This document shows positions 1,152-17,476 of a DNA stretch of 32,000 bases, one piece after another; the stretch's first letter is position 1; each line of letters starts with the position of its first letter. The translations under genes were made by a program, and so were the position numbers. A model generated the notes under the pieces. It did not search any database. It was not told the DNA's origin and saw only the letters and a list, made by a program, of their open reading frames with translations. The DNA lies in NCBI GenBank assembly GCA_964354495.1, contig CAYHAA010000003.1, positions 1 through 32,000 on the forward strand, written 5' to 3'. This stretch comes from an uncultured archaeon (GTDB taxonomy: Archaea; Asgardarchaeota; Thorarchaeia; Thorarchaeales; Thorarchaeaceae).

Positions 1152-1886
1152 ATGAAGGAAGCAAAGAAGATCTTCAAGACTGCACTTGCAGAGGGCAGAA
1201 CATTCGTTCTGGAACATGAAGCCAAAGACATAATGAGAGCCTACGGTATTCCGGTACCTCCATACAGCACAGCCACAACTGCTGATGAAGCCGTAGCCAA
1301 GGCGAAGGATATCGGGTTTCCAGTGGTACTGAAGATTCTCTCCAAGGATATCTTGCACAAGTCTGATGCTGGTGGGGTCAAGATCAATCTCAAGAGTGTA
1401 GGCGAGGTCCGAAAGGCGTTCAATGAGATAATAGAAAATGCAAAGAACTATGGTCGTGAGAAAGGAATCGATGTGGACCTAAGCCGGGGTGTTTTCGTTT
1501 CTGACTTTGCAGATATGGGAACTGAGATTATTGTGGGTGTCACCAAAGACCCACAGTTCGGCCACGCACTGATGGTCGGACTCGGAGGAATATTCGTTGA
1601 AGTCCTCAAAGATGTATCCTTCAGATTGATTCCATTCACCGAATCTGACGCAAGAGAGATGCTGAAAGAACTCAAGGCGTACAAGATACTGGAGGGGATA
1701 CGAGGTGAGGCGCCCAGAGATGTGGATGCCTTGGTCAAGATTATGCTCTCAGTGTCAAAGATGGTTGAAGAGAATCCGGAAATCACTGAGCTGGACTGCA
1801 ATCCAACCTTTGTGTACAAGGTTGGAGAGGGTGCTCTTGTGGTCGACGCTCGAATTTTAATTGACAATCCAAACAAGAAAGGCTAG
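1152..1886 (+). CDS. acdB: Acetate/acyl-CoA ligase (ADP-forming) beta subunit (ATP-grasp)
   Basis: LEHEAKDIMRAYGIPVP, GFPVVLKILS..ILHKSDAGGV, EIIVGVTKDPQFG, ELDCNP, VDARI. Confidence 0.92.
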   Translation: MKEAKKIFKTALAEGRTFVLEHEAKDIMRAYGIPVPPYSTATTADEAVAKAKDIGFPVVLKILSKDILHKSDAGGVKINLKSVGEVRKAFNEIIENAKNYGREKGIDVDLSRGVFVSDFADMGTEIIVGVTKDPQFGHALMVGLGGIFVEVLKDVSFRLIPFTESDAREMLKELKAYKILEGIRGEAPRDVDALVKIMLSVSKMVEENPEITELDCNPTFVYKVGEGALVVDARILIDNPNKKG

Positions 1887-3079
1887 CCGCTAATCAGAGC
1901 ATAGAGAAGAATTAGCCCTCGTTTCAAATCAGAGTCCTCAAGAGGCGCTGCAGGGGACTCCGTTGTCTTGCTTGCTAAGAGAAGAAGCAATGCTGTTATT
2001 CGTGGCACCAGTCGTGCGTATTGCAGTAAGAAGTCCTTGTTTCCGGTCGAATCGACAATCAGGCTCTCTAGTCTTCTCGTGATGAATTGAATTCGCTCAT
2101 CAACGCCGTTGGCTGGACGCAGACCCTTGAAGATAGTGACCGCCGAAGACGCGTCTTTAAGAAAATCAGAGGACACGCCGACTCTCTCTATAATCTCCAT
2201 TGATCCGATAATGATAGACTCGTAGTGTTCTTCCTCTAGTCTATCAAGCTTCTGCTTGACTCCCTGAAGCTGTCCAAGCAGTTTTAGTGAGTTAGTCAAT
2301 ATTGAACGAGAGGCACCAGAGGTGGCAACTGCCAGCTTCCCAAGATAGTCGCTGTGAACTCTCTCAAGATTGGCAGCAACTGATGCATTTAGCTTCTTCT
2401 CAAAACCCGGAGAGAATGCCACTCTTGCGGCAAGAGGGAGAACAGGATGAGTTCCAAGTTTCCTTATCGCAGTCAGTGCCTTGTAGTCATTTGCGTCAAC
2501 ATAGAAGAGAAGAATGCGGGTAGTATCATATGCGGTTTCAAAATCATCCTCGGTCGTGACATTTCTGCCTTGACTCTTGCATGCAAAGGCGCAGAGAAGA
2601 ACCCATGTGGACAGCATGTCATTGCAGAGACTCTCCATCTCCTTCTGATTTCCAACCTCGTGCTCTTCAAGAAAACGCGATAGCTTTTCGGTGGCTGCTG
2701 AAATTCGCTGGAGCGTGTTCCCGCCCACACTGAGGTCTGCGATTGATTTGATGAAACTTCGGGCGTCACGGGAGGCAGGTCTGAGGATGAGCACGGGGTC
2801 CTGTCGAGTGACCGTCCACCATTTTGATGTAGAGGTGAGATAGTCGAGCAAATCAACGGCAAGAGTAACATCGGATTGGCCCGCAGTGGTTCTCGAATTG
2901 AGATGTGCATTCAATCGAGTAATCAATCGGAGGAACCTTGTGACATGAACGGAGAGTTTCTCACCTGCAAAGACACAATCTGTAAATCTGGCAACGATTG
3001 AATCGACCTGCGATTGTATACCATCCTCGAGCTGAGTTTTCACAAGACTACGGTACACATCAACTGGAGTTCTTGCCAA
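1883..3079 (-). CDS. Hypothetical protein with about four tandem AAA+ lid-like helical repeats
   Basis: 398-aa ORF with no P-loop. Recurring units such as LRLITRLNAHLNSRTTAGQSDVTLAVDLL and VLLCAFACKSQGRNVTTEDDFETAY. The repeat interpretation is by eye only. Confidence 0.6.
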   Translation of the reverse strand: MARTPVDVYRSLVKTQLEDGIQSQVDSIVARFTDCVFAGEKLSVHVTRFLRLITRLNAHLNSRTTAGQSDVTLAVDLLDYLTSTSKWWTVTRQDPVLILRPASRDARSFIKSIADLSVGGNTLQRISAATEKLSRFLEEHEVGNQKEMESLCNDMLSTWVLLCAFACKSQGRNVTTEDDFETAYDTTRILLFYVDANDYKALTAIRKLGTHPVLPLAARVAFSPGFEKKLNASVAANLERVHSDYLGKLAVATSGASRSILTNSLKLLGQLQGVKQKLDRLEEEHYESIIIGSMEIIERVGVSSDFLKDASSAVTIFKGLRPANGVDERIQFITRRLESLIVDSTGNKDFLLQYARLVPRITALLLLLASKTTESPAAPLEDSDLKRGLILLYALISG

Positions 3080-3152: not shown

Positions 3153-3920
3153 TCATTTTCCATATCTGCGGGATCGCATACCATAGGACCTGAGCGCTCT
3201 CCAGATATCTATCCTTCTCACTGCAGGCCAGTAGATCTGAGCAAAGTATAGCTCAGAGTAGGCAGACTGCCAGAGAAGGAATCCTGAGAGGCGTTCCTCG
3301 CCAGAGGTTCTGATGATGAGGTCAGGATCGGGTATGCCGCTCGTGTAGAGGTTCTCCTCAATCACATCTTCAGTGACTTCAGATGCGCTCATCTGCCCCG
3401 TTTCTATCCTCTCTCCAATGGCTCGCACGGCATCTACAAGCTCGGCTCGCCCCGAGTATCCAATGGCTATGTTGAGAATGTGATCTTTGTAGTCCTTTGT
3501 ATCCTCTTCTGCAGCATGAATCGCATCCTGAACTTCCTTTGGCAAGAGATCCACTCGTCCGATTGCACTGATTCGCACCTTGTGACGATGAACATCTGGG
3601 TTCCCAACGACTTCACGGAATTTCTCCTTGGCCAAACTCATTATCTGATTGACCTCTTCCTTGCTTCGTTGAAAGTTCTCAATCGAAAAGGCATAAATCG
3701 TGCAGACTTTGACATTGGCCTCCCAGAGAATACGAAGCACCTCCAATACTTTGGCAGCCCCCTTCTGATGGCCAAACCAGGGAACTTCCATTCCGTGCTT
3801 CTTCGCATACCTACGATTTCCATCCAAGATTATTCCGACATGCTTGGGTGCGAGCTTCTTGTCTAACTGTCTGTATAGGAAATATTCGTACAGTCTATAG
3901 ACAGGGCCGGCCAAGTTCAA
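3153..3920 (-). CDS. uppS: cis-prenyltransferase (undecaprenyl-diphosphate synthase family)
   Basis: PKHVGIILDGNRRYA, GHQKG, YAFSIENFQRS, PDPDLIIRTSGEERLSGFLLWQSAYSELYF. Confidence 0.96.
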   Translation of the reverse strand: MNLAGPVYRLYEYFLYRQLDKKLAPKHVGIILDGNRRYAKKHGMEVPWFGHQKGAAKVLEVLRILWEANVKVCTIYAFSIENFQRSKEEVNQIMSLAKEKFREVVGNPDVHRHKVRISAIGRVDLLPKEVQDAIHAAEEDTKDYKDHILNIAIGYSGRAELVDAVRAIGERIETGQMSASEVTEDVIEENLYTSGIPDPDLIIRTSGEERLSGFLLWQSAYSELYFAQIYWPAVRRIDIWRALRSYGMRSRRYGK

Positions 3921-3994: not shown

Positions 3995-4366
3995 CTAGAT
4001 CATCTGAGCAATCTTCTCAGCAGCTCGCTTCATGTCTAGGAATATGAGCCCGAGTTTTGCATTGGCAGTGGTAGATACTGTTAGGCACGCATTCATACCT
4101 GCCTGAATCACCAGAAGCCAGCCATCCACACCCTTGATATTCACCTGTTCGAGGTTACCCTTTCCAAGCTCGATAGCGGCCTTCTCACCGAGAGTCAACA
4201 TCGCTGCGGTCATAGCAGCAACCTTCGCCTCATCCACATCCGTTGGAAGAGCAGAAACTATCGGGAGTCCTTCAACACTCACAATGGCACAAGCTTCAAT
4301 CTCAGGAATACTTCCCTGTAGTTCATTGAGAACTCCTTCGAGTGTGTTTTCACGGGACTCTCTCAT
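3995..4366 (-). CDS. Roadblock/LC7 (MglB-like) domain protein
   Basis: IEACAIVSVEGLPIVS..DEAKVAAMTAAMLTLGEKAAIELGKGNLEQVNIKG..LGLIFLDMKRAA pattern; 17 nt downstream of mglA. Confidence 0.9.
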   Translation of the reverse strand: MRESRENTLEGVLNELQGSIPEIEACAIVSVEGLPIVSALPTDVDEAKVAAMTAAMLTLGEKAAIELGKGNLEQVNIKGVDGWLLVIQAGMNACLTVSTTANAKLGLIFLDMKRAAEKIAQMI

Positions 4367-4383
4367 CTTGTTTCACCTGTAAT

Positions 4384-4956
4384 TCACTTGTACATCCTTT
4401 TGAGTATGACCTCTCGCGCTATTGCTTGGAACGCCCTTTTAACTCCTACACCTTGGACTGCAATGGTCTCATAGATGGGAACGTTGCCTCCAAGGCCGAG
4501 CAAGTCGAGCATCTCGTCACGCGACATTCTATTGGGTAGGTCTCTCTTGTTGAGCATAACCACTATGGGAATCTCACGCCCTAGAGCGTCTCCTAGGAAC
4601 AGCTTCAACTCTTCAAAACTCTCAGTGTTCTCATCACGTTGATCGGGGGATGAGTCAGCGACAAAGAGAATTCCATCCGTGCCCTGTAGGACGACCTTTC
4701 TCTGATGGCGGTGCCGTTTCTGTCCAGCCACGGTGAACACATCAAAGAGGACACGGCCTCCAGCCGACATCGGAACGTAGTCAAAGAACAGGGTTCTATT
4801 CGTTTCATCCTCAATCGCAGTGAATTCGCCCTTCTGGAGACCCTCCACTTTTCCGTACATCCAACGAAGTGCAGTGGTCTTTCCACCAAGTGAAGGACCA
4901 TAGAATACCAGCTTCAGATGGATTCTGCCCTTGTCATCCTTGCGAATTGCTAACAC
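4384..4956 (-). CDS. mglA: MglA-family small GTPase
   Basis: G1 KLVFYGPSLGGKTT, switch I ETNRTLFFD, G3 TVAGQ, DGILFVADS, G4 NKRD, G5 ETIA. GTG start. Confidence 0.9.
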   Translation of the reverse strand: MLAIRKDDKGRIHLKLVFYGPSLGGKTTALRWMYGKVEGLQKGEFTAIEDETNRTLFFDYVPMSAGGRVLFDVFTVAGQKRHRHQRKVVLQGTDGILFVADSSPDQRDENTESFEELKLFLGDALGREIPIVVMLNKRDLPNRMSRDEMLDLLGLGGNVPIYETIAVQGVGVKRAFQAIAREVILKRMYK

Positions 4957-5189
4957 CTCATTCTTTCACTGCTAGCCCGGACATGTTTCCAGATGGACCT
5001 TGGATTCTTGTCCGAACTGAGGTCCATGTTCTGGGAGGTTTGTTGAGTTAAAAATCTAGCCTAATAAAAGCCTTTGTGGCATAACAGGGCTTCATGGAGG
5101 CAGCCTCAATACAACTCACAGTACATGGTAATATGAACTGAATAGTGATAGCTGTGATTCCTGTTAAATTGTGTGTATTACTTGGAAAT

Positions 5190-5225
5190 TCACACACGTT
5201 CAAGCTGGGCCAGAGCTGATTTAAT
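5190..5225 (-). repeat. Diverged direct-repeat copy of the last 12 codons of the Roadblock gene 5914..6393
   Basis: Minus strand reads ATT AAA TCA GCT CTG GCC CAG CTT GAA CGT GTG TGA (IKSALAQLERV*), versus LKSALAELERV* at 5914-5949; 28/36 nt identical. Confidence 0.85.
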
Positions 5226-5268
5226 AAATGAATAATGTGTCTACAGACGGGAATAGGAGGAATCAAAT

Positions 5269-5871
5269 CTGCATACTCCAGATGCAATAGATGACCTGCA
5301 GACTGGAAAAGACGAGGCGCAGGCAATCCTACGCCCCATTCTGATATCTTTCGGATTGGCAATAATTGGACTAATCTACATACTAACAATTCCTCTCAGA
5401 TGGTTACCCGCTGCCTACCTGATTCCGGGTTACTCACTGGTAATTGTGGGTATAGGAGGACTATTACTCTTAGTGCGTCTGACGGTTCGACGAATATCAC
5501 CAGATACAGAGTTGGATCTCACACTAGCAATTATCAATGCCGCAGGATTTGTGATTCTCCTCTTTCCTCTGACACCAACAAGAGGATACGTGGAGCCGGG
5601 GCAGCCCTTCGGGTTTATACTTGGCTTTCATACCTCATTGTGGCCTCTGTTTGTGGCAGCGGGCGTTTCAGTACTACTAGTCACGAGGTTGTTGAGAAGA
5701 ACTACAGGGCGAGAGAAACCACTCTTCATGATTGCCAGTTTTGTTCTAGGTTTCATTACGATAGCACTATGCTGGTTTCTACTTCCTATTCTGAACGAGA
5801 TAACTCCTTCTCACATTGCAGGACTCGTCATATTCGTTCAAACTCTGATATTGCAGTTGTCTAAGCTTTGA
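5269..5871 (+). CDS. Hypothetical multi-pass membrane protein; start uncertain (CTG 5269 or TTG 5356)
   Basis: About 5-6 hydrophobic segments. Frame open from 5257. AGGAGG at 5255-5260 lies 8 nt before an in-frame CTG at 5269. Confidence 0.65.
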   Translation: MHTPDAIDDLQTGKDEAQAILRPILISFGLAIIGLIYILTIPLRWLPAAYLIPGYSLVIVGIGGLLLLVRLTVRRISPDTELDLTLAIINAAGFVILLFPLTPTRGYVEPGQPFGFILGFHTSLWPLFVAAGVSVLLVTRLLRRTTGREKPLFMIASFVLGFITIALCWFLLPILNEITPSHIAGLVIFVQTLILQLSKL

Positions 5872-5913
5872 GATGCTCTTCCGTGTAGACTTGAAGTGAG
5901 ATGTGAGCGGTTT

Positions 5914-6393
5914 TCAAACACGTTCAAGTTCTGCCAGGGCTGACTTGAGGTCTTCCTCATCAAGCTCGGCATCCTTGGGAGACAATGGCTCTACGGCCAG
6001 GAATTTGGCGAGCTCATCGGCAAGCTGCACGCCCTGTTTCTTCATTACGAGGCGAATCAGACCAATGTTGACCTCTGCCTCCGATACAACACAGAGTACA
6101 CCTTTTCCACAGGCCGAGGCGAAAATCTTGCCCTCTGAGAATTCAGATGTGACTATCTCAAGCTCCCCAATCTGCAGGTTCTTGCCCTGCTCCTCACTTG
6201 CACAGAAGACCGCACTGGCAATGGCTCCGATGCTGTCCACATCCACGGGGTAGTAGGACAACTTGGATACATTGGCAATTGTGAGTCCTGTCTTATCTAC
6301 AAGTATGACCTTCTTGATGCCTTTGTCTTGACGGATGATCTCGGTCAGTATCTTATCGAAGGCTTTTGGATCACTCATTCCAGTAAACTCCAT
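5914..6393 (-). CDS. mglB: Roadblock/LC7 MglB-like protein with acidic C-terminal helix
   Basis: VILVDKTGLTIA..SIGAIASAVFCASEEQGKNLQIGEL..NIGLIRLVMKK core, then the tail AELDEEDLKSALAELERV. Confidence 0.85.
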   Translation of the reverse strand: MEFTGMSDPKAFDKILTEIIRQDKGIKKVILVDKTGLTIANVSKLSYYPVDVDSIGAIASAVFCASEEQGKNLQIGELEIVTSEFSEGKIFASACGKGVLCVVSEAEVNIGLIRLVMKKQGVQLADELAKFLAVEPLSPKDAELDEEDLKSALAELERV

Positions 6394-6693
6394 TCAATCA
6401 TTGTTCTTGAGGACGACTAATATTAGGCCCTCTTTGACTTCCGGTGCGATGTTGATCTGACCCTTATTGGTGTCCAGGGTCAGGAATGACAGCGTCCCCT
6501 CCCGAAGCTCCCTCACTGCGTCGAGGGCTTTACCCACGAGAGAGGTTATGATTGCAGCGACGCTCTCCGTCGTTTCAGGGTCCAGATCACTGCTAAGTGG
6601 AAGACCCTCCATGGTGGTCACCACGACTCCACGAACACCTTCCTGTGCTTTGAGCCTTGACAGGATGGACTGGAGTTTTTCTTGTGTGATCAC
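6394..6693 (-). CDS. Roadblock/LC7 protein (short, dynein light chain roadblock-like)
   Basis: 99 aa; LSRLKAQEGVRGVVVTTMEGLPLSS..EINIAP..LILVVLK-type pattern. Its TGA directly abuts the ATG of the next Roadblock gene. Confidence 0.88.
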   Translation of the reverse strand: MITQEKLQSILSRLKAQEGVRGVVVTTMEGLPLSSDLDPETTESVAAIITSLVGKALDAVRELREGTLSFLTLDTNKGQINIAPEVKEGLILVVLKNND

Positions 6694-6791
6694 CGCACGG
6701 AATCCTCGCTACTTTCAGCTGTGCACTAACAACAACTACGCCGCAGTTGACTATTTTAGACTTGTGGAGATATGTTGCTGTGCGACGTGCA

Positions 6792-6805
6792 AAAATGCGC
6801 ATTTT
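6792..6805. promoter_or_regulatory. Perfect 14-bp palindrome, possible transcription-factor operator
   Basis: AAAATGCGCATTTT, about 100 nt upstream of the Roadblock gene starting at 6693. Confidence 0.35.
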
Positions 6806-6830
6806 GAACTGATATTCCGGTGTGTTACAC

Positions 6831-6868
6831 GGGAAAAGAAGAGAGCCGTGCATCACTTGAGCACGGCT
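6831..6868 (-). terminator. Hairpin plus pyrimidine tract downstream of the Sec23/24-like gene
   Basis: Minus strand AGCCGTGC-TCAAGTGAT-GCACGGCT (8-bp stem, 6844-6868) followed by CTCTTCTTTTCCC, about 30 nt after the stop codon. Confidence 0.6.
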
Positions 6869-6896
6869 GCCCAGTCCACAGATCACTAATGAGGTG

Positions 6897-8525
6897 TCAT
6901 TTCTCATCCTCGTCTTTCTTGAAGAGCGCTTTTGAGCTCCGTTTCATCTGAGCCAAATTCTCAGTGAATGCCTCGTCAGCCGCGCCTGAGGGAGCCGCTG
7001 CAGGATGGGCCTTTAGCATCTCCTCTTGTCGCTGAATCTCCATGTCTTCAGTATTCAAGGCATCATCAGCCTTCTGAAGCATAGCCTGAACGGACTTTGG
7101 AGCCGCCCCTGCTTTTCGTTTCATCGCAGACCTGAAGGATGCTATTCGTTCCCGACCCTTCTCACGTTGACCACTGAACGACTCCTCACCTGCCTTTTGG
7201 GTCACAAAAGTGGCTCCGACAGTTGGATCGAGGGTCGCCATGATTTCGGACTCTTTCTTTGAGACCTTAAGTCTAGTCGTGAGTGCGCGTACTCTTCGAG
7301 CGCCTTCTCCATCGGTGTATGTCACTTGGACTTGGATTGGAACTTCGGATTCTTTGATCTTCGTGTTGGGCTCTACCTCGAAGTAGAGCTCATGGTTTGC
7401 CCCCACCACCCCAATCTTGCTCTCACTCTTTTCCTTCAGAGTGTCGATCACCGCCCTTGATACACCCGAGACATCCTTGATCGAGATGCCAGGCGGAGTC
7501 ACAAGGCGTACCTCAACATCACGGCCCAACATCGAGGCACCAGCAAGTTCAGAGATACTTCGGTCAAGCTCGTTGGGAGTAACGTAGTACATCTGGCCTC
7601 CTGTGGCCTCGGGAAGGAGACCTAGTGTCTTTAGCTCCATGCCTGCGCCTGAGGCAATACCGACAACATCGACCGCGGCTCCAATATCGAGGAACATCTT
7701 TCCCAAATCTTGGTAGTACGTGTTTGCAGGAGTGACCTGATAGCCCTCGAGTGCACCAATTCCCTCATTTGCCAGACCATCAGTCAGGAGTACCACTCTT
7801 CCAACATTACGGTGTTTTGCAATAATGTACGCCATTGCAACTGCAGGACCAAGGGCAGTCCCGCCCTTGTCTCGAAGGGTCTGAATGTGCCCCTTCAACT
7901 TCTTGGCGTTCTCTCCAACGTTAACAAGTCGAATCTTATCGAGGAGACTCTTGGTTGACTCGATGATGGCATCAAGACTAGCAAAGGATGCCTGTGGTAG
8001 TTGTACAGACTCACCGGTCTCCAAGTTTCGAGCGACGATACTACTCTCGAACTCGATGAGACCAAACATCGTTTCCGGAGCGTTTGAGGCAAGACTGTCA
8101 ATGGATGTGTTCAGGCTGCGCTTGACCGCGGCAAGATTGGCGCCGCTCATAGAACCCGAAACGTCGATGAGTGCAAGGAAGGATTTTCCACCTGCAGACA
8201 CGACACCAGTGTCAGAGTCAGTCTTGATTCGTGGCGGTTCCACGACGAAGTCTGTGTCATCTCCCGCAACAACGATCTCGCCTTCAATGATGTTCAGAGT
8301 TCCACAGAATGGACAATAGAAATGCTTGCCAACCTTTGGATCCTCCTGAATCTGATCTACACTGAGTAGGAAACCGTTACACTTGTGACAGGCGATGGGT
8401 TTCCCCACTATCTTGGTCGTTTCATGGGCGAGGTGACTAAACTCTACACGTAGAACATAAGGAATGTCACTCAGAACATCTTTCGACGCTGGAAAGGACT
8501 CTGAGCTAGTTCGCAACATAGGCAT
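6897..8525 (-). CDS. Sec23/Sec24-like protein (zinc finger, vWA trunk, beta-sandwich, helical region)
   Basis: PIACHKC..FYCPFCGTLN zinc finger; vWA motifs FLALIDVSGSM, GGTALG and VVLLTDG; VPIQVQVTYTDGEGARRVRALTTRL resembles the Sec23/24 beta-sandwich. Confidence 0.78.
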   Translation of the reverse strand: MPMLRTSSESFPASKDVLSDIPYVLRVEFSHLAHETTKIVGKPIACHKCNGFLLSVDQIQEDPKVGKHFYCPFCGTLNIIEGEIVVAGDDTDFVVEPPRIKTDSDTGVVSAGGKSFLALIDVSGSMSGANLAAVKRSLNTSIDSLASNAPETMFGLIEFESSIVARNLETGESVQLPQASFASLDAIIESTKSLLDKIRLVNVGENAKKLKGHIQTLRDKGGTALGPAVAMAYIIAKHRNVGRVVLLTDGLANEGIGALEGYQVTPANTYYQDLGKMFLDIGAAVDVVGIASGAGMELKTLGLLPEATGGQMYYVTPNELDRSISELAGASMLGRDVEVRLVTPPGISIKDVSGVSRAVIDTLKEKSESKIGVVGANHELYFEVEPNTKIKESEVPIQVQVTYTDGEGARRVRALTTRLKVSKKESEIMATLDPTVGATFVTQKAGEESFSGQREKGRERIASFRSAMKRKAGAAPKSVQAMLQKADDALNTEDMEIQRQEEMLKAHPAAAPSGAADEAFTENLAQMKRSSKALFKKDEDEK

Positions 8526-8709
8526 GATATATTCGCCTCCAAAATTACTCAGCCATTCTTTGCACGAGGCGTTTTAAGTCAATCGACGACTCTCGCTCTA
8601 TCAAAGATGGGCTAACTCGGCATGTCCATGACCATCACACAAGATATATAGACTCCAGCACTCAAGACCGAGATAGTCATTCGAGACCTCCAAGGAGGAT
8701 AACACGTAG

Positions 8710-9081
8710 ATGGTGGATCAGGCTAAGATTGAACAGGTTGTTGCGGAAACCATGGCTAGTAATGCCGAACTTCAGGGCATAATCGTCTGTGATGCAAGGG
8801 GCAAGGTGCTCTTTGGACATACAATCACAGGGGGAATCAAGCACTCTGATGTTGCCGACCTTGCAGTGAAGATTGCATCCAACTCCTCTCAGCTGGCAGC
8901 TGGGCTCGATAAGGGTGGTCTCAGAGAAGTGAGTATAGCAGCTGACCATGGCCTTGTTATAATCCTAGGCGACGTGAAGCTTGTGATGGCCGCAGTAGCT
9001 GGAGAGGGCGCTCGAGAGTCTATGGGACTGCTTAAGATGGCTCTTCGGCGTTCATTACTCTCTATCCTAGGGAAGAAGTGA
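8710..9081 (+). CDS. Roadblock/LC7-like protein
   Basis: LQGIIVCDARGKVLF..LDKGGLREVSIAADHGLVII..MGLLKMALRR pattern; GGAGG at 8695-8699; TATA-like GATATATA near 8643-8650. Confidence 0.72.
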   Translation: MVDQAKIEQVVAETMASNAELQGIIVCDARGKVLFGHTITGGIKHSDVADLAVKIASNSSQLAAGLDKGGLREVSIAADHGLVIILGDVKLVMAAVAGEGARESMGLLKMALRRSLLSILGKK

Positions 9082-9248
9082 AACTTAGGCCACCAGAGTT
9101 ACACTTTTCTGTCCTTTGTTGAATTGAACACAGGACGTATAGACCAATATCTACATGTAGCTTAGGTATTACTCTGGTCATACCAACGGTATTCAGGACT
9201 GTGTAACATCCCAATAACACATAACCTGACACACCTGAATGACCGAAT

Positions 9249-12200
9249 TTGCCGGGAAGGTTGCGAGACTTGGTACACATCGAGAAGCTAGTATGCAAGG
9301 GCTTCAAATCATTTGGCCGAGACTCTGTCACCATCAAATTCAATCCTGGCTTCACGTGCATTGTTGGTCCAAACGGCTCGGGCAAGTCAAATGTCGTAGA
9401 CGCCATTCTCTTCGTTTTAGGACAACTCAGTGCCAAGACTCTGCGTGCAACAGTCTTCTCGGATTTGCTCTACTCGCCACCAAAGCCAAACATGCCACCG
9501 AAAGCAAAGTCTGCAACAGTTGAGCTGCATTTCGATAATACTGACAGAAAACTGCAGATTGATGCCGATAGGGTGGTCATTGAGAGAGAACTGGATGATA
9601 CAGGCAAGTCTGTCTGTCGTATAAACAACAAGACTGTAACCAGAGGTGCTGTCATCGATGTGCTTGGTGCTGTTGGGGTGGATCCAAACGGGTACAACCT
9701 TGTGCTTCAGGGCGAGATCGCTCAGATGGTGAAGGTAAGCCCCGCCGAGCGACGAAAGATGATTGAGGAGATTGCGGGCATCTCCGCATATGATGAACAA
9801 AAGGAGCGAGCTCTCAAGAAACTGGCAGAGAGCGAGAGTAATCTGGGAAAGGTTGATGCTCAATTACAGGAACGTCGGCGCCAACTTGAGAAACTGCAAG
9901 AAGAACGGTCGGATGCCCTCCGCCACAAAGGAATGAATGCCCAGATACAGAAGCACAGAATCGACATACTTGCCTGGAGCATAATCAAGGGCAGACTCAG
10001 AATAGATGCCATTAAGGAGACTCTCACTGAGAGAGCAGAGGAGGCAAGCAATCTTGCAAAGGAACTTGTCGAAGTTGAAACGGGAATCACTGCGACGGAC
10101 ATAGAGATTGATACTATCGACCATGACATAGACCAGATAACGGGAGGAGACTCTGCTAAGATATCAGAGCAATATGGTATAGTTTCTGCTGCAGTGAGCC
10201 ATGTTCGCTCCAATCTTGAGCGTGCACAGGCAGAGCATGATAGAGCCAGTAGTGAAAAGACCGGGTTACTCAAGGAGTTAGGGTCTGTCCAGAGTGAGAT
10301 GAGCAATAATGAACGCCTCATGAAAGGAAAGATAGAGCAGTTTGACAAGCTCGAGAAGGAGATATCGAGCACAGCAGCTCAAGTCATACGTCTTGAGGAG
10401 ATGTCGGAGAAGGAACAGGCTGCCTATTACGAAACAACTCTCCGCTTGCAGGATCTGAGTACCCAGCTTCGAGCCCTAGACGAGGGAGTTTCGGAGATAC
10501 GCTCATCAATAAAATCTGATAATAGGGAACTTGGACTTGCCTATGAAGAGTCTAGAGACTCCACTGATGGTCTTGAGAAGGCAGAACAGGACCTGAAGGA
10601 GCTGAAACAAGTCATTCCTGAAAGACGGCAAGTGCTAGAGAAAGACGAAGCGCTGGAAGAGTCCAAGAAGAAGAAGTATGAGGAGGTCACTGGCCACCTT
10701 ACAACCGTTGATGCGGAGGTGGATGAGAGTGCACATATCGTGGCGTCGACAAGAGAAGAACTGATTAGAGTTCAGGCTCGCCAAGATGCTCTCAAGGAGG
10801 CAGAGGACGCGTTCTTGAAGAAGCAACGCGCAATTGCCAAGGTGTTGAAGCTAAGGGATAGTGGGGAGATTGGTGGAATCCATGGTACTGTCGCTGAGCT
10901 AGGTACAATAGACCCGGACTATGCGGTCGCGATGGAGATAGCAGGAGGCAGCAGACTATCGTATATTATCGTCGAGAACGATGATACAGCAACAGCATGT
11001 GTAGAGATCTTGAAACGTGATAGAGTGGGGCGAGCGTCGTTCATTCCACTTGATAAGATTAAGACCCAGCCACCAAAGAAGCTACCAACTGATAATGGAG
11101 TCATAGATTTCGCACTGAACCTGGTCAAATTTGAACCAAGGATGCGACCAGCCTTTGAATTCGTGTTCTCTGACACCATAGTGACAAAGGGATTCGACAC
11201 TGCTAAGCGCCTTGGTTTCCGAGGTCAGCGCGCAGTATCGCTCGAAGGAGACCTCATAGAGCGGTCAGGCCTAATGACTGGAGGACACTACCAGAGAGGT
11301 GGAGGAGGTCTCTCGCTTCAGGTAGAAGACACTAGCCCAGAGATAGCGAAACGGCTTCAGGGACTTGAAGATATTCTCACAGATTTGAGGAGTAAGCAGA
11401 GCGTCCTACGAGATGAGAAGAGAACTCTGGAGAGAGAACTCCAAGAACTATCTAAGTCGAACTACCGCGCAAGGCTGGAACTGGAAAAGCTCGAAGACCG
11501 GATGGATGAACAAGAGAATAGGTCAAAGACACTACAGGAGAGAATCAAGAAAGCCAGTCTGACGATAGAAGAGCTTGAAACCCAAATCAAAAGCCTTCAG
11601 GTACGTGATGAGGAACTCACGGTTCAACGCGAGAGAGTCATGGCGCAGCGTGATCAGTGCAACGAAGACCTCACAAAATCCGATTCTGCGAAGCTCTACC
11701 AAGACACTAGGGATCTGAAGCAAGTCCAAGAACAATATCAGAAACAGCGAGAGAAACTTCAGAGCGAGATCACATCTTTGAGAGTCGCTCTCGATGAGCG
11801 GCTTGGCCCGAAGGCAATTGAGATAGAGTCGAAGATTCAGGCACATGACTCAATACTTCCAGGTCTCGAAGAAGAGGTCAAGAGGCATGAACTAGGACTG
11901 GAAGAGAGAGAGAACGAATTCCTCAAGCTGAAGGAGAAACGGGAACAAATCGATGAGGCAGTGAAGGACAAGAGGGTACATCAGCTTGAACTGAAAGAAA
12001 CTGTGAGGAATTACAGACTACGTCACGAGGAGATTCGAGAGGCTCAGACCTCAAATGAGAAGGCAGTCTACAGGTTGCAGACGGAACAGAATCGTCTAGA
12101 GACCGATATTGTTGGATTTGCTGCAGACTTGGAAACCCACACCGCAGTTGATGAGGCACTCGAAGAGAGAAAGGATGCAAGGGAACCTACCTATCGGGAG

Positions 12201-12860
12201 TTGGAAGAACGCGATGAGAAGATCAAAGAGATAGAGAGAGAGCTCGAGGCGATGGGACCTGTCAACCTGAAATCACTCACAGACTATGATCTTGAACGGG
12301 AGAAATATGATGAGATTGTAGACAAGAAGACCAAATTGGAGGAAGAGCGAAAGGAGATTCTTGCGTTCATGGAGGAACTGGAAGCAGAAAAGACTCAGAA
12401 ATTCCTCACGGTCTACAATGATATTGCAGACAACTTTGCAAAGGTCTTCGCGAAACTCTCTCCAGGTGGTGAAGGCAATCTCATGCTTGAGAACCCCGAA
12501 TATCCACTGATGGGCGGTATCACTGTAAGGTCAAAACCGCTTGGCAAGGACCTTGTGACACTTGATGCAATGAGCGGTGGTGAGAAGACTCTCACTGGCC
12601 TCGCCCTGATCTTTGCAATTCAGATGTACAATCCTTCGACCTTCTATGTGTTCGATGAGATTGATGCAGCACTGGACAATGTGAATGCTCACAATGTCGC
12701 GCAGCTTATTTCGGAGATGTCAAAATCATCACAGTTCATTGTAGTATCCCTCAGGGACACGACCGTTCGAAAGGCGGATCTTCTTGTTGGTGTAGCCAAC
12801 CAAGATGGAATTTCGAGGATAGTATCTGTTGATCTGGAGGAGGTCGGAGCTGAAACATGA
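9249..12860 (+). CDS. smc: Chromosome segregation protein SMC (start may be TTG 9270)
   Basis: KGFKSF, Walker A GPNGSGKSN, long coiled coils, hinge (GIHGTVAEL..GRASFIPLD..SLEGD), signature MSGGEK, Walker B/D-loop FDEIDAALD. Confidence 0.98.
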   Translation: MPGRLRDLVHIEKLVCKGFKSFGRDSVTIKFNPGFTCIVGPNGSGKSNVVDAILFVLGQLSAKTLRATVFSDLLYSPPKPNMPPKAKSATVELHFDNTDRKLQIDADRVVIERELDDTGKSVCRINNKTVTRGAVIDVLGAVGVDPNGYNLVLQGEIAQMVKVSPAERRKMIEEIAGISAYDEQKERALKKLAESESNLGKVDAQLQERRRQLEKLQEERSDALRHKGMNAQIQKHRIDILAWSIIKGRLRIDAIKETLTERAEEASNLAKELVEVETGITATDIEIDTIDHDIDQITGGDSAKISEQYGIVSAAVSHVRSNLERAQAEHDRASSEKTGLLKELGSVQSEMSNNERLMKGKIEQFDKLEKEISSTAAQVIRLEEMSEKEQAAYYETTLRLQDLSTQLRALDEGVSEIRSSIKSDNRELGLAYEESRDSTDGLEKAEQDLKELKQVIPERRQVLEKDEALEESKKKKYEEVTGHLTTVDAEVDESAHIVASTREELIRVQARQDALKEAEDAFLKKQRAIAKVLKLRDSGEIGGIHGTVAELGTIDPDYAVAMEIAGGSRLSYIIVENDDTATACVEILKRDRVGRASFIPLDKIKTQPPKKLPTDNGVIDFALNLVKFEPRMRPAFEFVFSDTIVTKGFDTAKRLGFRGQRAVSLEGDLIERSGLMTGGHYQRGGGGLSLQVEDTSPEIAKRLQGLEDILTDLRSKQSVLRDEKRTLERELQELSKSNYRARLELEKLEDRMDEQENRSKTLQERIKKASLTIEELETQIKSLQVRDEELTVQRERVMAQRDQCNEDLTKSDSAKLYQDTRDLKQVQEQYQKQREKLQSEITSLRVALDERLGPKAIEIESKIQAHDSILPGLEEEVKRHELGLEERENEFLKLKEKREQIDEAVKDKRVHQLELKETVRNYRLRHEEIREAQTSNEKAVYRLQTEQNRLETDIVGFAADLETHTAVDEALEERKDAREPTYRELEERDEKIKEIERELEAMGPVNLKSLTDYDLEREKYDEIVDKKTKLEEERKEILAFMEELEAEKTQKFLTVYNDIADNFAKVFAKLSPGGEGNLMLENPEYPLMGGITVRSKPLGKDLVTLDAMSGGEKTLTGLALIFAIQMYNPSTFYVFDEIDAALDNVNAHNVAQLISEMSKSSQFIVVSLRDTTVRKADLLVGVANQDGISRIVSVDLEEVGAET

Positions 12861-13567
12861 TGGATGATGATGCTCCATTCTGGGCAACACCCCCCTACAT
12901 CCTCCTCACAGATGTCCTTCAACTGGACAAGGTAGAACCATGGAATGTCGATGTAGGAAAACTGGTTGTTGGATTCCTCACCGAGATGAAACGATTAGGT
13001 GATATTGATTTTCGCATTTCAGGAAATGCGCTCTACTCAGCATCCGTCATCTTCATGCGAAAAACACGAGAGCTTGTGCAGCTTGGTGTTCTTCCGCCTA
13101 GCGAAGATGGTGATAATGGAGAGCTTGAGATTCCACTCATCAGGCCGCCCTTCAGACTCACTAATAGACGTGTCACGCTCGAAGAACTGCTCGTTGCCAT
13201 GGATCTTGTCCTGAGCAAGGGAACAAGAGAACGGCTCGCCCCCACGAGACAGAAATATCGGGGTAAGGCAGACCCGTTGACCTTCTCAATGGATTCAGAC
13301 CAAGCAAACATTGAGGAAACTATTGCGGAAGTCTACGAGGACCTCCAGAGAATCGTGAAGATAGGCGAAATCGTCAAGTTCACCGATACACTCATGAATC
13401 ACACTCGCAAAGAGATTGTTCGAGTGTTCTTTTCTCTATTGTTTCTGTATGCCAGAAGTTTCATTGATATCTGGATGGAAGAGGATAACACAATCATGTT
13501 GAAGATACGCGAACCTCCCCAAATCAAAGAGGAGGAGGAAGCGGAAAAGCCCGAGATAAGACGGTAA
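12857..13567 (+). CDS. scpA: Segregation and condensation protein A (kleisin)
   Basis: EPWNVDVGKL, SGNALYSAS..MRKT, RRVTLEELL, C-terminal VRVFFSLLFL; ATGA overlap with smc. Confidence 0.92.
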   Translation: MMDDDAPFWATPPYILLTDVLQLDKVEPWNVDVGKLVVGFLTEMKRLGDIDFRISGNALYSASVIFMRKTRELVQLGVLPPSEDGDNGELEIPLIRPPFRLTNRRVTLEELLVAMDLVLSKGTRERLAPTRQKYRGKADPLTFSMDSDQANIEETIAEVYEDLQRIVKIGEIVKFTDTLMNHTRKEIVRVFFSLLFLYARSFIDIWMEEDNTIMLKIREPPQIKEEEEAEKPEIRR

Positions 13568-13577
13568 GGCGACGAAC

Positions 13578-14132
13578 GTGGACGAAGACATGATTACACT
13601 TGAGGCAGCGCTCTATGTCAGTGGCAGGGCACTGACACTTGAGGAGTTGTCCGATCTCATCGGTAAGTCACAATCGACAACACAGAAGATACTAGATAAT
13701 CTTGGATTCGAGTATAACCAGAGAGAGGGAGCGCTTGAGGTGGTGGCTCTTCCTCGAGATCGCTATGCAATGCAGCTGAAGCCGGAACTGACTCCTAGGG
13801 TAGGCAAGCTGATACCCGGGGGACTTCTCTCATTCGCAACACTGCAGACACTTGTCTTCATAGCCCTAAAACAGCCTATAATGCAGTCAGATCTTGTGAC
13901 ACAGAGAGGAACCCATTGTTATGACCATGTGAAAGAGCTGATTGAGAAGAAATTCATCGAGTCCGCACCTGAGGGGAGATCCAGACTCTTGACAACAACT
14001 CCTCTCTTCGCCGACTACTTTGGTCTGGACAGCGATAGAGTAAAGCTGAAGGCACAACTGAAATTCAAGATGAAGAAGATTTTTGAAGACCAAGGACAGG
14101 CGGGAGTATCAGAGGCTCAGGATGTCCTCTAG
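13578..14132 (+). CDS. scpB: Segregation and condensation protein B
   Basis: LEAALYVSG, TLVFIALKQPI, HVKELIEKKFI, TTPLFADYFGL; follows scpA. Confidence 0.95.
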   Translation: MDEDMITLEAALYVSGRALTLEELSDLIGKSQSTTQKILDNLGFEYNQREGALEVVALPRDRYAMQLKPELTPRVGKLIPGGLLSFATLQTLVFIALKQPIMQSDLVTQRGTHCYDHVKELIEKKFIESAPEGRSRLLTTTPLFADYFGLDSDRVKLKAQLKFKMKKIFEDQGQAGVSEAQDVL

Positions 14133-16234: not shown

Positions 16235-16840
16235 TTGTCAAAGTCCGCTCGGTCCAACAAGAAAGAGAGTAAGGCGAAGAAGACTCCTGGCAAGTCCAGT
16301 CCTGCCTTACCGAAGTCCGCCAAGAGAGCAACTGATTCTAAGACAAGGGGCACTGTCAATGTCAAGAGGACATCGGAAAAGAAATCAACAGACAAGGTAG
16401 CAGGCGAGAAGAAGACATCAAGCAAGACGGCAGAGAAGGCCAAATTCAAGGAGAAAGCAAAAGGCAAAGAGGATGATCATATCCTCAAGGAGCTTCAGAC
16501 AGAAATACGGAGCGAGGATGAACAGGTCGCCCTTGGCGCGGTGGAACGATTGAGTCAGTTGAAGGACTCACGAGCCACGGAAACATTGATTCAAGGGCTG
16601 CATGACCGCAGGCAGATGGTCAGAATTCATGTTGCTGCCCAGCTGGGCGAAAGAAAGGACCCGAAGGCTGTTGACGCACTGATAAGATCACTTGAGGACA
16701 AATCTGTCTTTGTAAGACAGACTGTTGCTGGCGCTCTTGAGAACATAGGCAGCACAAAGGCAAAGAAGGCAGTCAAGAGAATCGAGGAGGAAGGCCTGCT
16801 TCTGGATGAACTTCCAGAAGGACACCGACTGACTGACTAA
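16235..16840 (+). CDS. HEAT-repeat (PBS-lyase-like) protein with Lys/Ser/Thr/Ala-rich N-terminal tail
   Basis: Repeats VRIHVAAQLGERKDPKAVDALI and VRQTVAGALENIG; GAGGAG at 16221-16226 before a TTG start. Confidence 0.8.
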   Translation: MSKSARSNKKESKAKKTPGKSSPALPKSAKRATDSKTRGTVNVKRTSEKKSTDKVAGEKKTSSKTAEKAKFKEKAKGKEDDHILKELQTEIRSEDEQVALGAVERLSQLKDSRATETLIQGLHDRRQMVRIHVAAQLGERKDPKAVDALIRSLEDKSVFVRQTVAGALENIGSTKAKKAVKRIEEEGLLLDELPEGHRLTD

Positions 16841-16933: not shown

Positions 16934-17476
16934 ATGGAACATGAGAAGGAAGTAGCAAAGCTTGAGTCCGCAATTAAGGACCTAGACCTTGATTACATGC
17001 GCGGATGGGTATCAGAAGACGAGTATAAGACTAGGGTAGCAAGCCTTCGACAGCAGCTTAAGAACGTTGGAGAACCGGTTCGGGAGCCTCCAATTGCCAA
17101 GAAAATAGAAGCATCCGAACTGCAATCTGCAAGACTATATCCGCCCACCGTTCAGAAGAAAGCTAGTGTTGATCCCGTCACGGCAGTCCAGAGAACGGTC
17201 CAATCTATGAGAAAGATCCCAATCGAGAGGATATCTCAAGAGTCTGGAGTTCCACCTCAAATTGTCACAAAGATCCTAGCAGACCTTCTTGATGGGCGGG
17301 AGATTTCTGGCAGAATCGACCATGATTCAGGCGATCTCATTCTTGGCACAGGTACAGGACCCGCACCGAAGACAATCCATGGTTGCCCGTATTGTAGGAC
17401 TGACCTAGAACGTGTGGCAGTCAAGGGTGAAACGATCACATGTTCCGTATGCAGAGAATCATTCATAGTCACATAG
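16934..17476 (+). CDS. Hypothetical protein: SHOCT-like helix, PCI-type winged helix, zinc ribbon
   Basis: GWVSEDEYKTRVASL; IPIERISQESGVPPQIVTKILADLLDGREISGRIDH; CPYC..CSVC. Confidence 0.65.
   Translation: MEHEKEVAKLESAIKDLDLDYMRGWVSEDEYKTRVASLRQQLKNVGEPVREPPIAKKIEASELQSARLYPPTVQKKASVDPVTAVQRTVQSMRKIPIERISQESGVPPQIVTKILADLLDGREISGRIDHDSGDLILGTGTGPAPKTIHGCPYCRTDLERVAVKGETITCSVCRESFIVT

Follow-up and report, generated by a model that had tools for sequence, protein, structure and literature searches.

A 32,000-nucleotide stretch of DNA from an uncultured archaeon of the Thorarchaeaceae (Asgardarchaeota; assembly GCA_964354495.1, contig CAYHAA010000003.1, positions 1 to 32,000), hereafter the window, carries within a single locus the genes for an MglA-family small GTPase, four Roadblock proteins (Rbl1 to Rbl4) and a Sec23/24-like protein. 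Our comparison of this locus across the Asgard archaea gives good support to the reading that MglA and the four Roadblocks belong to one system, an ancient Asgard module. The history of the Sec23/24-like gene appears to be a separate one. We consider it likely that the locus holds an ancient MglA/four-Roadblock switch into which the Sec23/24-like gene was independently inserted in the ancestor of the Thorarchaeota family, and that the product of this gene is probably not an obligate effector or GTPase-activating protein (GAP) of MglA. The six genes had been listed in a preliminary description of the window; we found open reading frames at exactly the coordinates it gave, and profile or structure matches confirmed all six identities.

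Genomes of the phylum were searched with the Sec23/24-like protein (n = 400) and with MglA (n = 158, well assembled), and about 70 loci were fetched. Below, f numbers denote Asgard families (f1 being the Thorarchaeota family, or Thor, and f12 a Hermodarchaeota-type family), G numbers genomes and L numbers loci. Rbl1, MglA, Rbl2, Rbl3 and a divergent Rbl4 occur together, all five genes, in f1, f2, f12, f16, f24, f8 and f4. Four of the cluster genes are found together in f7 and f13, and a partial cluster exists in f21, f5 and f14. Rbl4 diverges from Rbl3 in each of the seven families with the full set, and in the window it is transcribed towards the SMC gene. The preliminary description had proposed that MglA and the Roadblocks form one system, and this proposal gains from the co-travelling of the five genes across many Asgard families and from an MglA that has every MglA-specific catalytic feature. 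The surroundings are shared as well: a gene for the cis-prenyltransferase UPPS adjoins Rbl1 in f1, f2, f12, f13, f8 and f4, and the SMC-ScpA-ScpB genes adjoin Rbl4 in f1, f2, f12 and f24. The presence of the UPPS and SMC-ScpA-ScpB flanks in several Asgard families (L061-L063, L068-L070, L073) is an unusually deep synteny for archaea.

One may ask whether the genes cluster by chance or neutral synteny alone, with no cooperation between the GTPase and the Roadblocks. In favour of this, the source genome has about 26 matches to the Arf profile (which also catches other GTPases) and 12 Roadblock matches. However, the same four Roadblock families surround the same MglA ortholog, with short spacers, in at least seven families with five genes and two with four, and the pairing of MglA with MglB is experimentally established in bacteria. 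We therefore regard mere coincidence as extremely unlikely. Another explanation is that MglA and the Roadblocks serve SMC-ScpAB, as a positioning switch of the GTPase type that acts in chromosome organisation or division instead of at membranes or in motility, the Sec23/24-like gene being irrelevant. Rbl4 indeed points into SMC-ScpA-ScpB across a gap of about 170 bp in f1, f2, f12 and f24. In addition, no archaellin gene was found in the source genome (97.7% complete), so that the classical motility outputs of bacterial MglA are unlikely here and its usual targets seem absent. This explanation is nonetheless improbable in our view, since f16, f8, f4, f7 and f13 have no SMC adjacency though their Roadblock and MglA genes cluster, housekeeping genes commonly show long-range synteny, and we know of no link between SMC and MglA.

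The GTPase itself, assigned by Pfam to the small GTPases, matches the solved MglA proteins of Myxococcus xanthus and Thermus thermophilus at an E-value of 4e-38, the next best match being Arf at 7e-12. Its P-loop, GPSLGGKTT, fits GxxxxGK[ST], and its specificity motif, NKRD, fits NKxD; the residues G20, G25, K26, T27, N136, K137 and D139 are invariant among 26 Asgard orthologs. In a residue alignment, its TVAGQ corresponds to TVPGQ of M. xanthus MglA, with Thr in place of Asp in the G3 motif followed by the catalytic Gln, and T75, G78 and Q79 are invariant in the same orthologs. R54 and T55 align with R53 and T54 of M. xanthus, the intrinsic arginine finger of switch I, R54 being conserved in at least 90% of the orthologs and T55 in all of them. 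Judged by these residues, the protein is a true MglA with the family's own catalytic set: intrinsic arginine finger, catalytic Gln and Thr in G3. There is also a second paralog of MglA, with 51% identity and an open frame of about 290 amino acids; its distance from an Rbl1-like Roadblock gene is about 7.5 kb (G000:C1:160263-168522, L065; G031:C21, L066), an arrangement common to two Thor genera.

The Roadblock domain was recovered by profile in all four partners, above the Pfam cut-off for Rbl1, Rbl2 and Rbl3 and, for Rbl4, whose Pfam match is sub-threshold (0.023), through a profile of its orthologs. Such ortholog profiles were built for the Roadblocks and then compared with solved structures. 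Rbl1, whose gene lies 17 bp downstream of mglA and follows it in most Asgard families with the cluster, matches the solved Asgard Roadblocks 7f8m (3.4e-32) and 9jue (4e-30), and MglB at 1e-5. Rbl2 matches the Pfam family MAPKK1_Int (LAMTOR3/MP1; 1.7e-7) and the NCBIfam MglB family (1.1e-4), and the best solved matches of its profile are MglB (1.5e-6) and then LAMTOR2. Alone among the four, it has a conserved acidic C-terminal helix, in which L149, A152, L156 and E157 are invariant in 17 orthologs. Rbl3, which abuts Rbl2 with no spacer, matches Pfam LAMTOR5 (1.4e-6) beside Robl_LC7 (1e-17). Its profile finds 7f8f, a 94-amino acid Robl_LC7 chain, at 2e-39, and the eukaryotic dynein light chain Roadblock at 7e-24; 7f8f may be the Odin-RBLC7 of PMC10933270. 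The Rbl4 profile matches the solved Roadblocks 9jq8 (3e-21) and 7f8m (7e-11). The four Roadblocks are thus distinct, old families, co-conserved with MglA. In a Hermodarchaeota-type genome (G047), about 29 nucleotides (L063:9117-9145, minus strand) interrupt the Rbl2 ortholog; with them removed, the frame continues exactly at the conserved junction of ...SYYPV and DVDGIGA..., and the interruption resembles a short intron of a protein-coding gene.

In Myxococcus and Thermus, hydrolysis of GTP by MglA is stimulated by a dimer of the Roadblock protein MglB. The module resembles the MglA-MglB(-MglC) systems of M. xanthus and T. thermophilus in its GTPase family, arginine finger, catalytic Gln and Thr in G3, and in the adjacent Roadblock partner; Rbl2 is MglB-like, with a C-terminal helix as in M. 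xanthus MglB, and the additional Roadblock paralogs recall MglC. In the bacterial systems, however, there is one MglB homodimer, whereas here there are four Roadblock families, one of them of the short dynein-LC7 type, in an archaeal host. In eukaryotes, the Ragulator consists of two Roadblock heterodimers held by LAMTOR1, which contact the C-terminal Roadblock domains of the Rag GTPases. Four Roadblock-fold subunits, long and short, accompany a small GTPase in both Ragulator-Rag (LAMTOR2/3 and LAMTOR4/5) and the Asgard cluster, and Rbl2 and Rbl3 score marginally above the Pfam cut-offs for LAMTOR3 and LAMTOR5, respectively. However, the GTPase here is a 190-amino acid MglA rather than a Rag, with no C-terminal Roadblock domain; the cluster has no LAMTOR1-like gene; and among solved structures the closest are MglB and dynein LC7, not the LAMTORs. 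For these reasons we rejected the idea that the four Roadblocks are a Ragulator homolog.

The window thus carries an ancient Asgard block in which UPPS, the Rbl1-MglA pair and the Rbl2-Rbl3 pair share one strand, while Rbl4 diverges from them and runs towards SMC-ScpA-ScpB. With this in mind, one may propose how the switch would work. Rbl2, which is MglB-like, and Rbl3, which is LC7-like, are encoded by abutting genes and may form a platform that docks on the switch regions of MglA and stimulates hydrolysis by positioning R54 and Q79, as MglB does, while the acidic C-terminal helix of Rbl2 could tune nucleotide exchange. Rbl1 and Rbl4 would then be second-tier Roadblock dimers, stacking on the complex or localising it, like MglC or the second Ragulator dimer. 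According to this model, the ancestor of f1 acquired the Sec23/24-like gene, seemingly a transcription unit of its own, within the gap of divergent promoters that separates Rbl3 from Rbl4.

The 542-amino acid product of that gene is, by its profile matches and modelled fold, a genuine member of the Sec23/24 family. Pfam finds in it, in this order, a weak Sec23/24 zinc finger, the Sec23_trunk domain (3.4e-11) and the beta-sandwich (1.7e-7, just under its cut-off), and a family profile built from 26 sequences matches yeast Sec24 at 2.7e-19 over positions 44-470. The AlphaFold model has a mean local confidence (pLDDT) of 88 and a predicted template modelling score (pTM) of 0.89, and in a Foldseek search with this model the top 46 matches were all Sec23 or Sec24 (E-values of 1e-29 to 1e-20). 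The template modelling (TM) score was about 0.7 by query and about 0.5 by target, the latter being low because the gelsolin domain is missing. Pfam order, profile and fold agree on the succession of a zinc ribbon, a vWA trunk, a beta-sandwich and a helical domain. The zinc-ribbon cysteines C46, C49, C71 and C74 are invariant across Asgard homologs, as is the full MIDAS (metal ion-dependent adhesion site; D121, S123, S125, T223 and D249). In yeast Sec24 this site is degenerate, its last Asp being lost in the profile alignment. No C-terminal gelsolin-like domain was found in the 542 amino acids, and the AlphaFold model ends in helices. The domain, which carries the GAP arginine of Sec23, was reported to be absent from all Asgard Sec23-like proteins (PMC11914678). 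The gene is single-copy in the source genome, leaving no pair of Sec23 and Sec24.

It was previously suggested, in the preliminary description, that MglA is the switch that recruits the Sec23/24-like protein, and a comparison of gene order across Asgard genomes was proposed as a check. In this comparison, f1 is the only family in which the Sec23/24-like gene is placed between Rbl3 and Rbl4, and outside f1 the gene is unlinked from mglA and the Roadblock genes: in the sister family, in the Hermodarchaeota-type family and in every other Asgard lineage sampled, the MglA cluster and the Sec23/24-like gene are never together. Where both are present they may be 860 kb (G166) or 120 kb (G184) apart, or on different contigs (G349, G177, G138 and G167-171). 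Even within f1, three genomes keep the cluster with no Sec23/24-like gene in it. In G031 the cluster is contiguous and the Sec23/24-like gene is on a different contig; in G030 (96% complete) the cluster is again contiguous and the gene is found neither there nor anywhere else in the genome; and G393 (98% complete) has no such gene. The distributions of the two genes across Asgard families are largely independent. In f21, MglA is present in 8 of 8 genomes and the Sec23/24-like gene in none of 22, with a similar picture in f13, f7, f3 and f14, and in f9, f29 and f30 the Sec23/24-like gene is present with only weak MglA matches.

Three points weigh against the explanation we favour. The Roadblock pairings and the GAP and guanine nucleotide exchange factor (GEF) roles that it assigns are inferred. 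In addition, at least 14 Thor genera retain the Sec23/24-like gene at this place, even though its sequence fell to about 54% identity; yet this retention is not special, because the UPPS and SMC flanks are kept in f1 equally well. Finally, outside Thor the neighbours of the Sec23/24-like gene are mostly unrelated housekeeping genes, but in four genera a gene for a small GTPase or a Roadblock is no more than two genes away. In G209 (f9), an Arf-like GTPase (L153:7194-7865; closest solved matches 8ouk and 8oul, both entered as 'Arf GTPase') is encoded 125 bp upstream of the Sec23/24-like gene (7991-9655) on the same strand, the only adjacency of an Arf and a Sec23-like gene that we saw. In genus g18 of f9 (L055:7122-8423; L054, L056 and L060 alike), genes for a Ras-family GTPase and an Rce1-like CAAX prenyl protease stand just upstream of the Sec23/24-like gene, with a peroxiredoxin fragment in between. 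A Roadblock gene is directly upstream in G177, and a Roadblock-domain protein is encoded nearby in G184. These neighbourhoods, in 4 of 22 genera where about 1.9 would be expected given how dense such genes are in the same flanks, are not significant, and leave a low probability for a general connection of GTPases with Sec23/24-like proteins. One further candidate neighbour, in L154, was dropped when its gene turned out to be FeoB.

The rival reading built on the earlier suggestion is that GTP-bound MglA of the Thorarchaeota brings in the Sec23/24-like protein as its effector, which would give a proto-coat or membrane adaptor, with the Roadblocks providing GAP, GEF and scaffold functions. Adjacency throughout the Thor family despite large sequence divergence, the GTPase and Roadblock neighbours in four other genera, including the Arf-like gene of G209, and the eukaryotic precedent of Sar1 and Sec23 all speak for it. 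Furthermore, an Asgard Arf expressed in yeast bound yeast Sec23 only in its GTP form, but binding between three Asgard Sec23-like proteins and an Asgard Arf in yeast was weak and nucleotide-independent (PMC11914678). The two genes are unlinked in every lineage outside Thor that has both, as well as in the three Thor genomes, and have independent distributions across Asgard families, while the UPPS and SMC flanks are conserved in Thor just as well. For the Sec23/24-like gene, there is a separate promoter-like element, T-runs come after the stop codon, and one copy is present rather than a Sec23 and Sec24 pair. Its product has no gelsolin domain and hence no arginine finger of the Sec23 type (PMC11914678), and MglA, having a finger of its own, needs none. 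We consider recruitment unlikely on these grounds. A predicted complex of MglA and the Sec23/24-like protein, with alignments for both, scored 0.00 in two runs, a result that counts neither way, and a search for longer relatives fused to a GTPase or Roadblock, which is a weak test, returned a single 1089-amino acid Kelch/ankyrin/vWA protein and thus gave no support for such a fusion. The earlier interpretation of the locus is well supported as regards the MglA/Roadblock system, whereas the gene-order comparison does not support the recruitment of the Sec23/24-like protein by MglA.

The comparative data also argue against a proto-COPII machine at this locus. The Sec23/24-like protein has in common with the COPII inner coat (Sar1-Sec23/Sec24) its fold and the order of zinc finger, trunk, beta-sandwich and helical domain, and in Thorarchaeota a small GTPase gene is nearby. 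However, it has neither the gelsolin domain nor its arginine finger, occurs as a single copy, has MglA and not Sar1 or Arf as its neighbour, and is linked to it in one family; its MIDAS site is complete and invariant where that of yeast Sec24 is degenerate. The position of the gene does not indicate a primitive vesicle coat, because the gene was added only in the Thorarchaeota family and has its own promoter-like element.

If the Sec23/24-like gene is, as we favour, a separate insertion, what may its product do? Following Sec23 and Sec24, the next Foldseek matches were one bacterial vWA protein and then Sulfolobus ArnB (8s05), at an E-value of 6e-15. ArnB was described as a regulator resembling the Sec23/24 core, with an occupied MIDAS site (PMC12852372). 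The vWA, beta-sandwich and helical domains are common to both proteins, and the residues of the MIDAS site that is occupied in ArnB are complete here. The zinc finger, in contrast, is fused in the Thor protein, whereas in the Arn system it resides on a separate protein, ArnA, together with an FHA domain. It seems most likely that the Sec23/24-like protein acts as an ArnB-like, MIDAS-dependent adaptor, independent of MglA. As such a zinc-ribbon/vWA adaptor, it would use its intact MIDAS site to bind an acidic or phosphorylated motif of a partner, as in ArnB. By Pfam, no FHA or kinase gene was seen beside the Sec23/24-like gene in the window, with no examination aimed at Arn-type partners.

The regulatory signals at the locus also speak for a Sec23/24-like gene that is a separate unit. 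A motif upstream of Rbl3 (6752-6767) occurs once in the window versus 0 expected. It is kept in Thor genomes that have the Sec23/24-like gene and also in G031, where that gene is absent from the locus, and we infer that it is the promoter of Rbl3. It falls within the 203 bp that separate the stop of the Sec23/24-like gene from the start of Rbl3. A TATA-like element and a ribosome-binding site of its own accompany the Sec23/24-like gene, and its stop codon is followed by T-runs. Because of the Rbl3 motif, the TATA-like element, the T-runs and the variable spacer between mglA and Rbl2, the locus can be read as separate putative transcription units: Rbl3-Rbl2, MglA-Rbl1, Rbl4 and the Sec23/24-like gene. 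In a wetland metatranscriptome, short contigs, mostly 90-95% alike, cover parts of mglA, the Rbl3/Rbl2 junction, the Sec23/24-like gene and Rbl4. None of them bridges the Sec23/24-like gene and Rbl3, but such contigs do not show transcript ends and may include DNA carry-over, and they were not used as evidence on operon structure.

At 957 bp, the mglA-Rbl2 spacer of the window is longer than that of most relatives from Thor (190-500 bp) and than that of other families (15-100 bp). Since it also reaches 1 kb and 3.9 kb in two relatives, it appears to be an insertion hot spot. Its sequence is not conserved in relatives and is single-copy in the genome, and its open reading frames have no Pfam match and an odd composition. 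Positions 5190-5225 are a diverged 36-nucleotide copy of the 3' end of Rbl2 (5914-5949), with 28 of 36 positions identical. A plasmid search with the spacer gave no match, and an Rfam scan of the whole window, spacer included, found nothing.

Asgard genomes encode dozens of small GTPases and of Roadblock or longin proteins. Several elements of the locus have been described before. Roadblock and GTPase families are among the Asgard core genes (bioRxiv 10.1101/2020.10.19.343400), and a Thor MglA-MglB pair has been modelled (PMC13408092). Asgard MglA-like GTPases and Roadblock structures have been published, with the observation that the GTPases of Loki MK-D1 are generally not in operons with Roadblocks and that, operons being rare, Asgard regulators cannot be matched to GTPases by gene order (PMC10933270). 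Thor Sec23/24 homologs, first reported in earlier work, were described together with their missing gelsolin domain (PMC11914678, Nat Commun 2025). The protein in the window belongs to that same family and lacks the same domain; its position beside mglA and Roadblock genes is unmentioned in that work, where MglA appears once, as a clade in a tree. Our literature search found no paper on the five-gene cluster or on the adjacency of a Sec23/24 gene to mglA and Roadblock genes.

The cluster offers a rare matched set, one MglA with four defined Roadblock families, conserved in much of the Asgard archaea. Close solved homologs exist for two of the four Roadblocks, and the set is suited to binding and GTPase assays, which could reveal whether platforms of mixed Roadblocks, of the Ragulator or dynein-LC7 kind, are older than eukaryotes. 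The neighbouring Sec23/24-like protein adds one inexpensive candidate partner for MglA and the Roadblocks. One may speculate that in Thorarchaeota MglA-GTP or the Roadblock platform controls where a gelsolin-less Sec23/24 ancestor assembles. We doubt that it does; if true, this would be the first GTPase-controlled assembly of the Sec23/24 type outside eukaryotes, with MglA replacing Sar1/Arf.

Table. Positions in the window of the cluster genes, their flanks and associated elements.
Feature	Position	Strand	Supporting match or remark
UPPS (cis-prenyltransferase)	3153..3920	-	Pfam Prenyltransf 1.2e-76; conserved cluster flank
Rbl1, full-length Roadblock/LC7, 123 aa	3995..4366	-	Pfam Robl_LC7 2.5e-16
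MglA-family small GTPase, 190 aa	4384..4956	-	solved MglA matches at 4e-38
Variable mglA-Rbl2 spacer, 957 bp	4957..5913	.	no credible gene
Rbl2, MglB-like Roadblock, 159 aa	5914..6393	-	Pfam Robl_LC7 1.6e-9
Rbl3, short dynein-LC7-type Roadblock, 99 aa	6394..6693	-	Pfam Robl_LC7 1e-17
Promoter-like motif CCACAAG + TCTAAAATA	6752..6767	-	59-74 nt upstream of Rbl3
Sec23/24-like protein, 542 aa	6897..8525	-	Pfam Sec23_trunk 3.4e-11
Rbl4, divergent Roadblock, 123 aa	8710..9081	+	ortholog profile versus 9jq8, 3e-21
SMC-ScpA-ScpB	9249..14132	+	Pfam SMC_N 1.9e-70, ScpA 1.3e-7, ScpB 3.2e-33

Beyond the cluster, two other places in the window deserve mention. A 398-amino acid protein encoded at 1883-3079, which has no Pfam or NCBIfam match, is a constant neighbour of UPPS throughout the Thor family, with 47-70% identity. 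A 180-amino acid protein (16934-17476) has a PCI-domain match (7e-7) and a weak match to a CdvA-like coiled coil, and its gene adjoins one for a HEAT-repeat protein (16235-16840).

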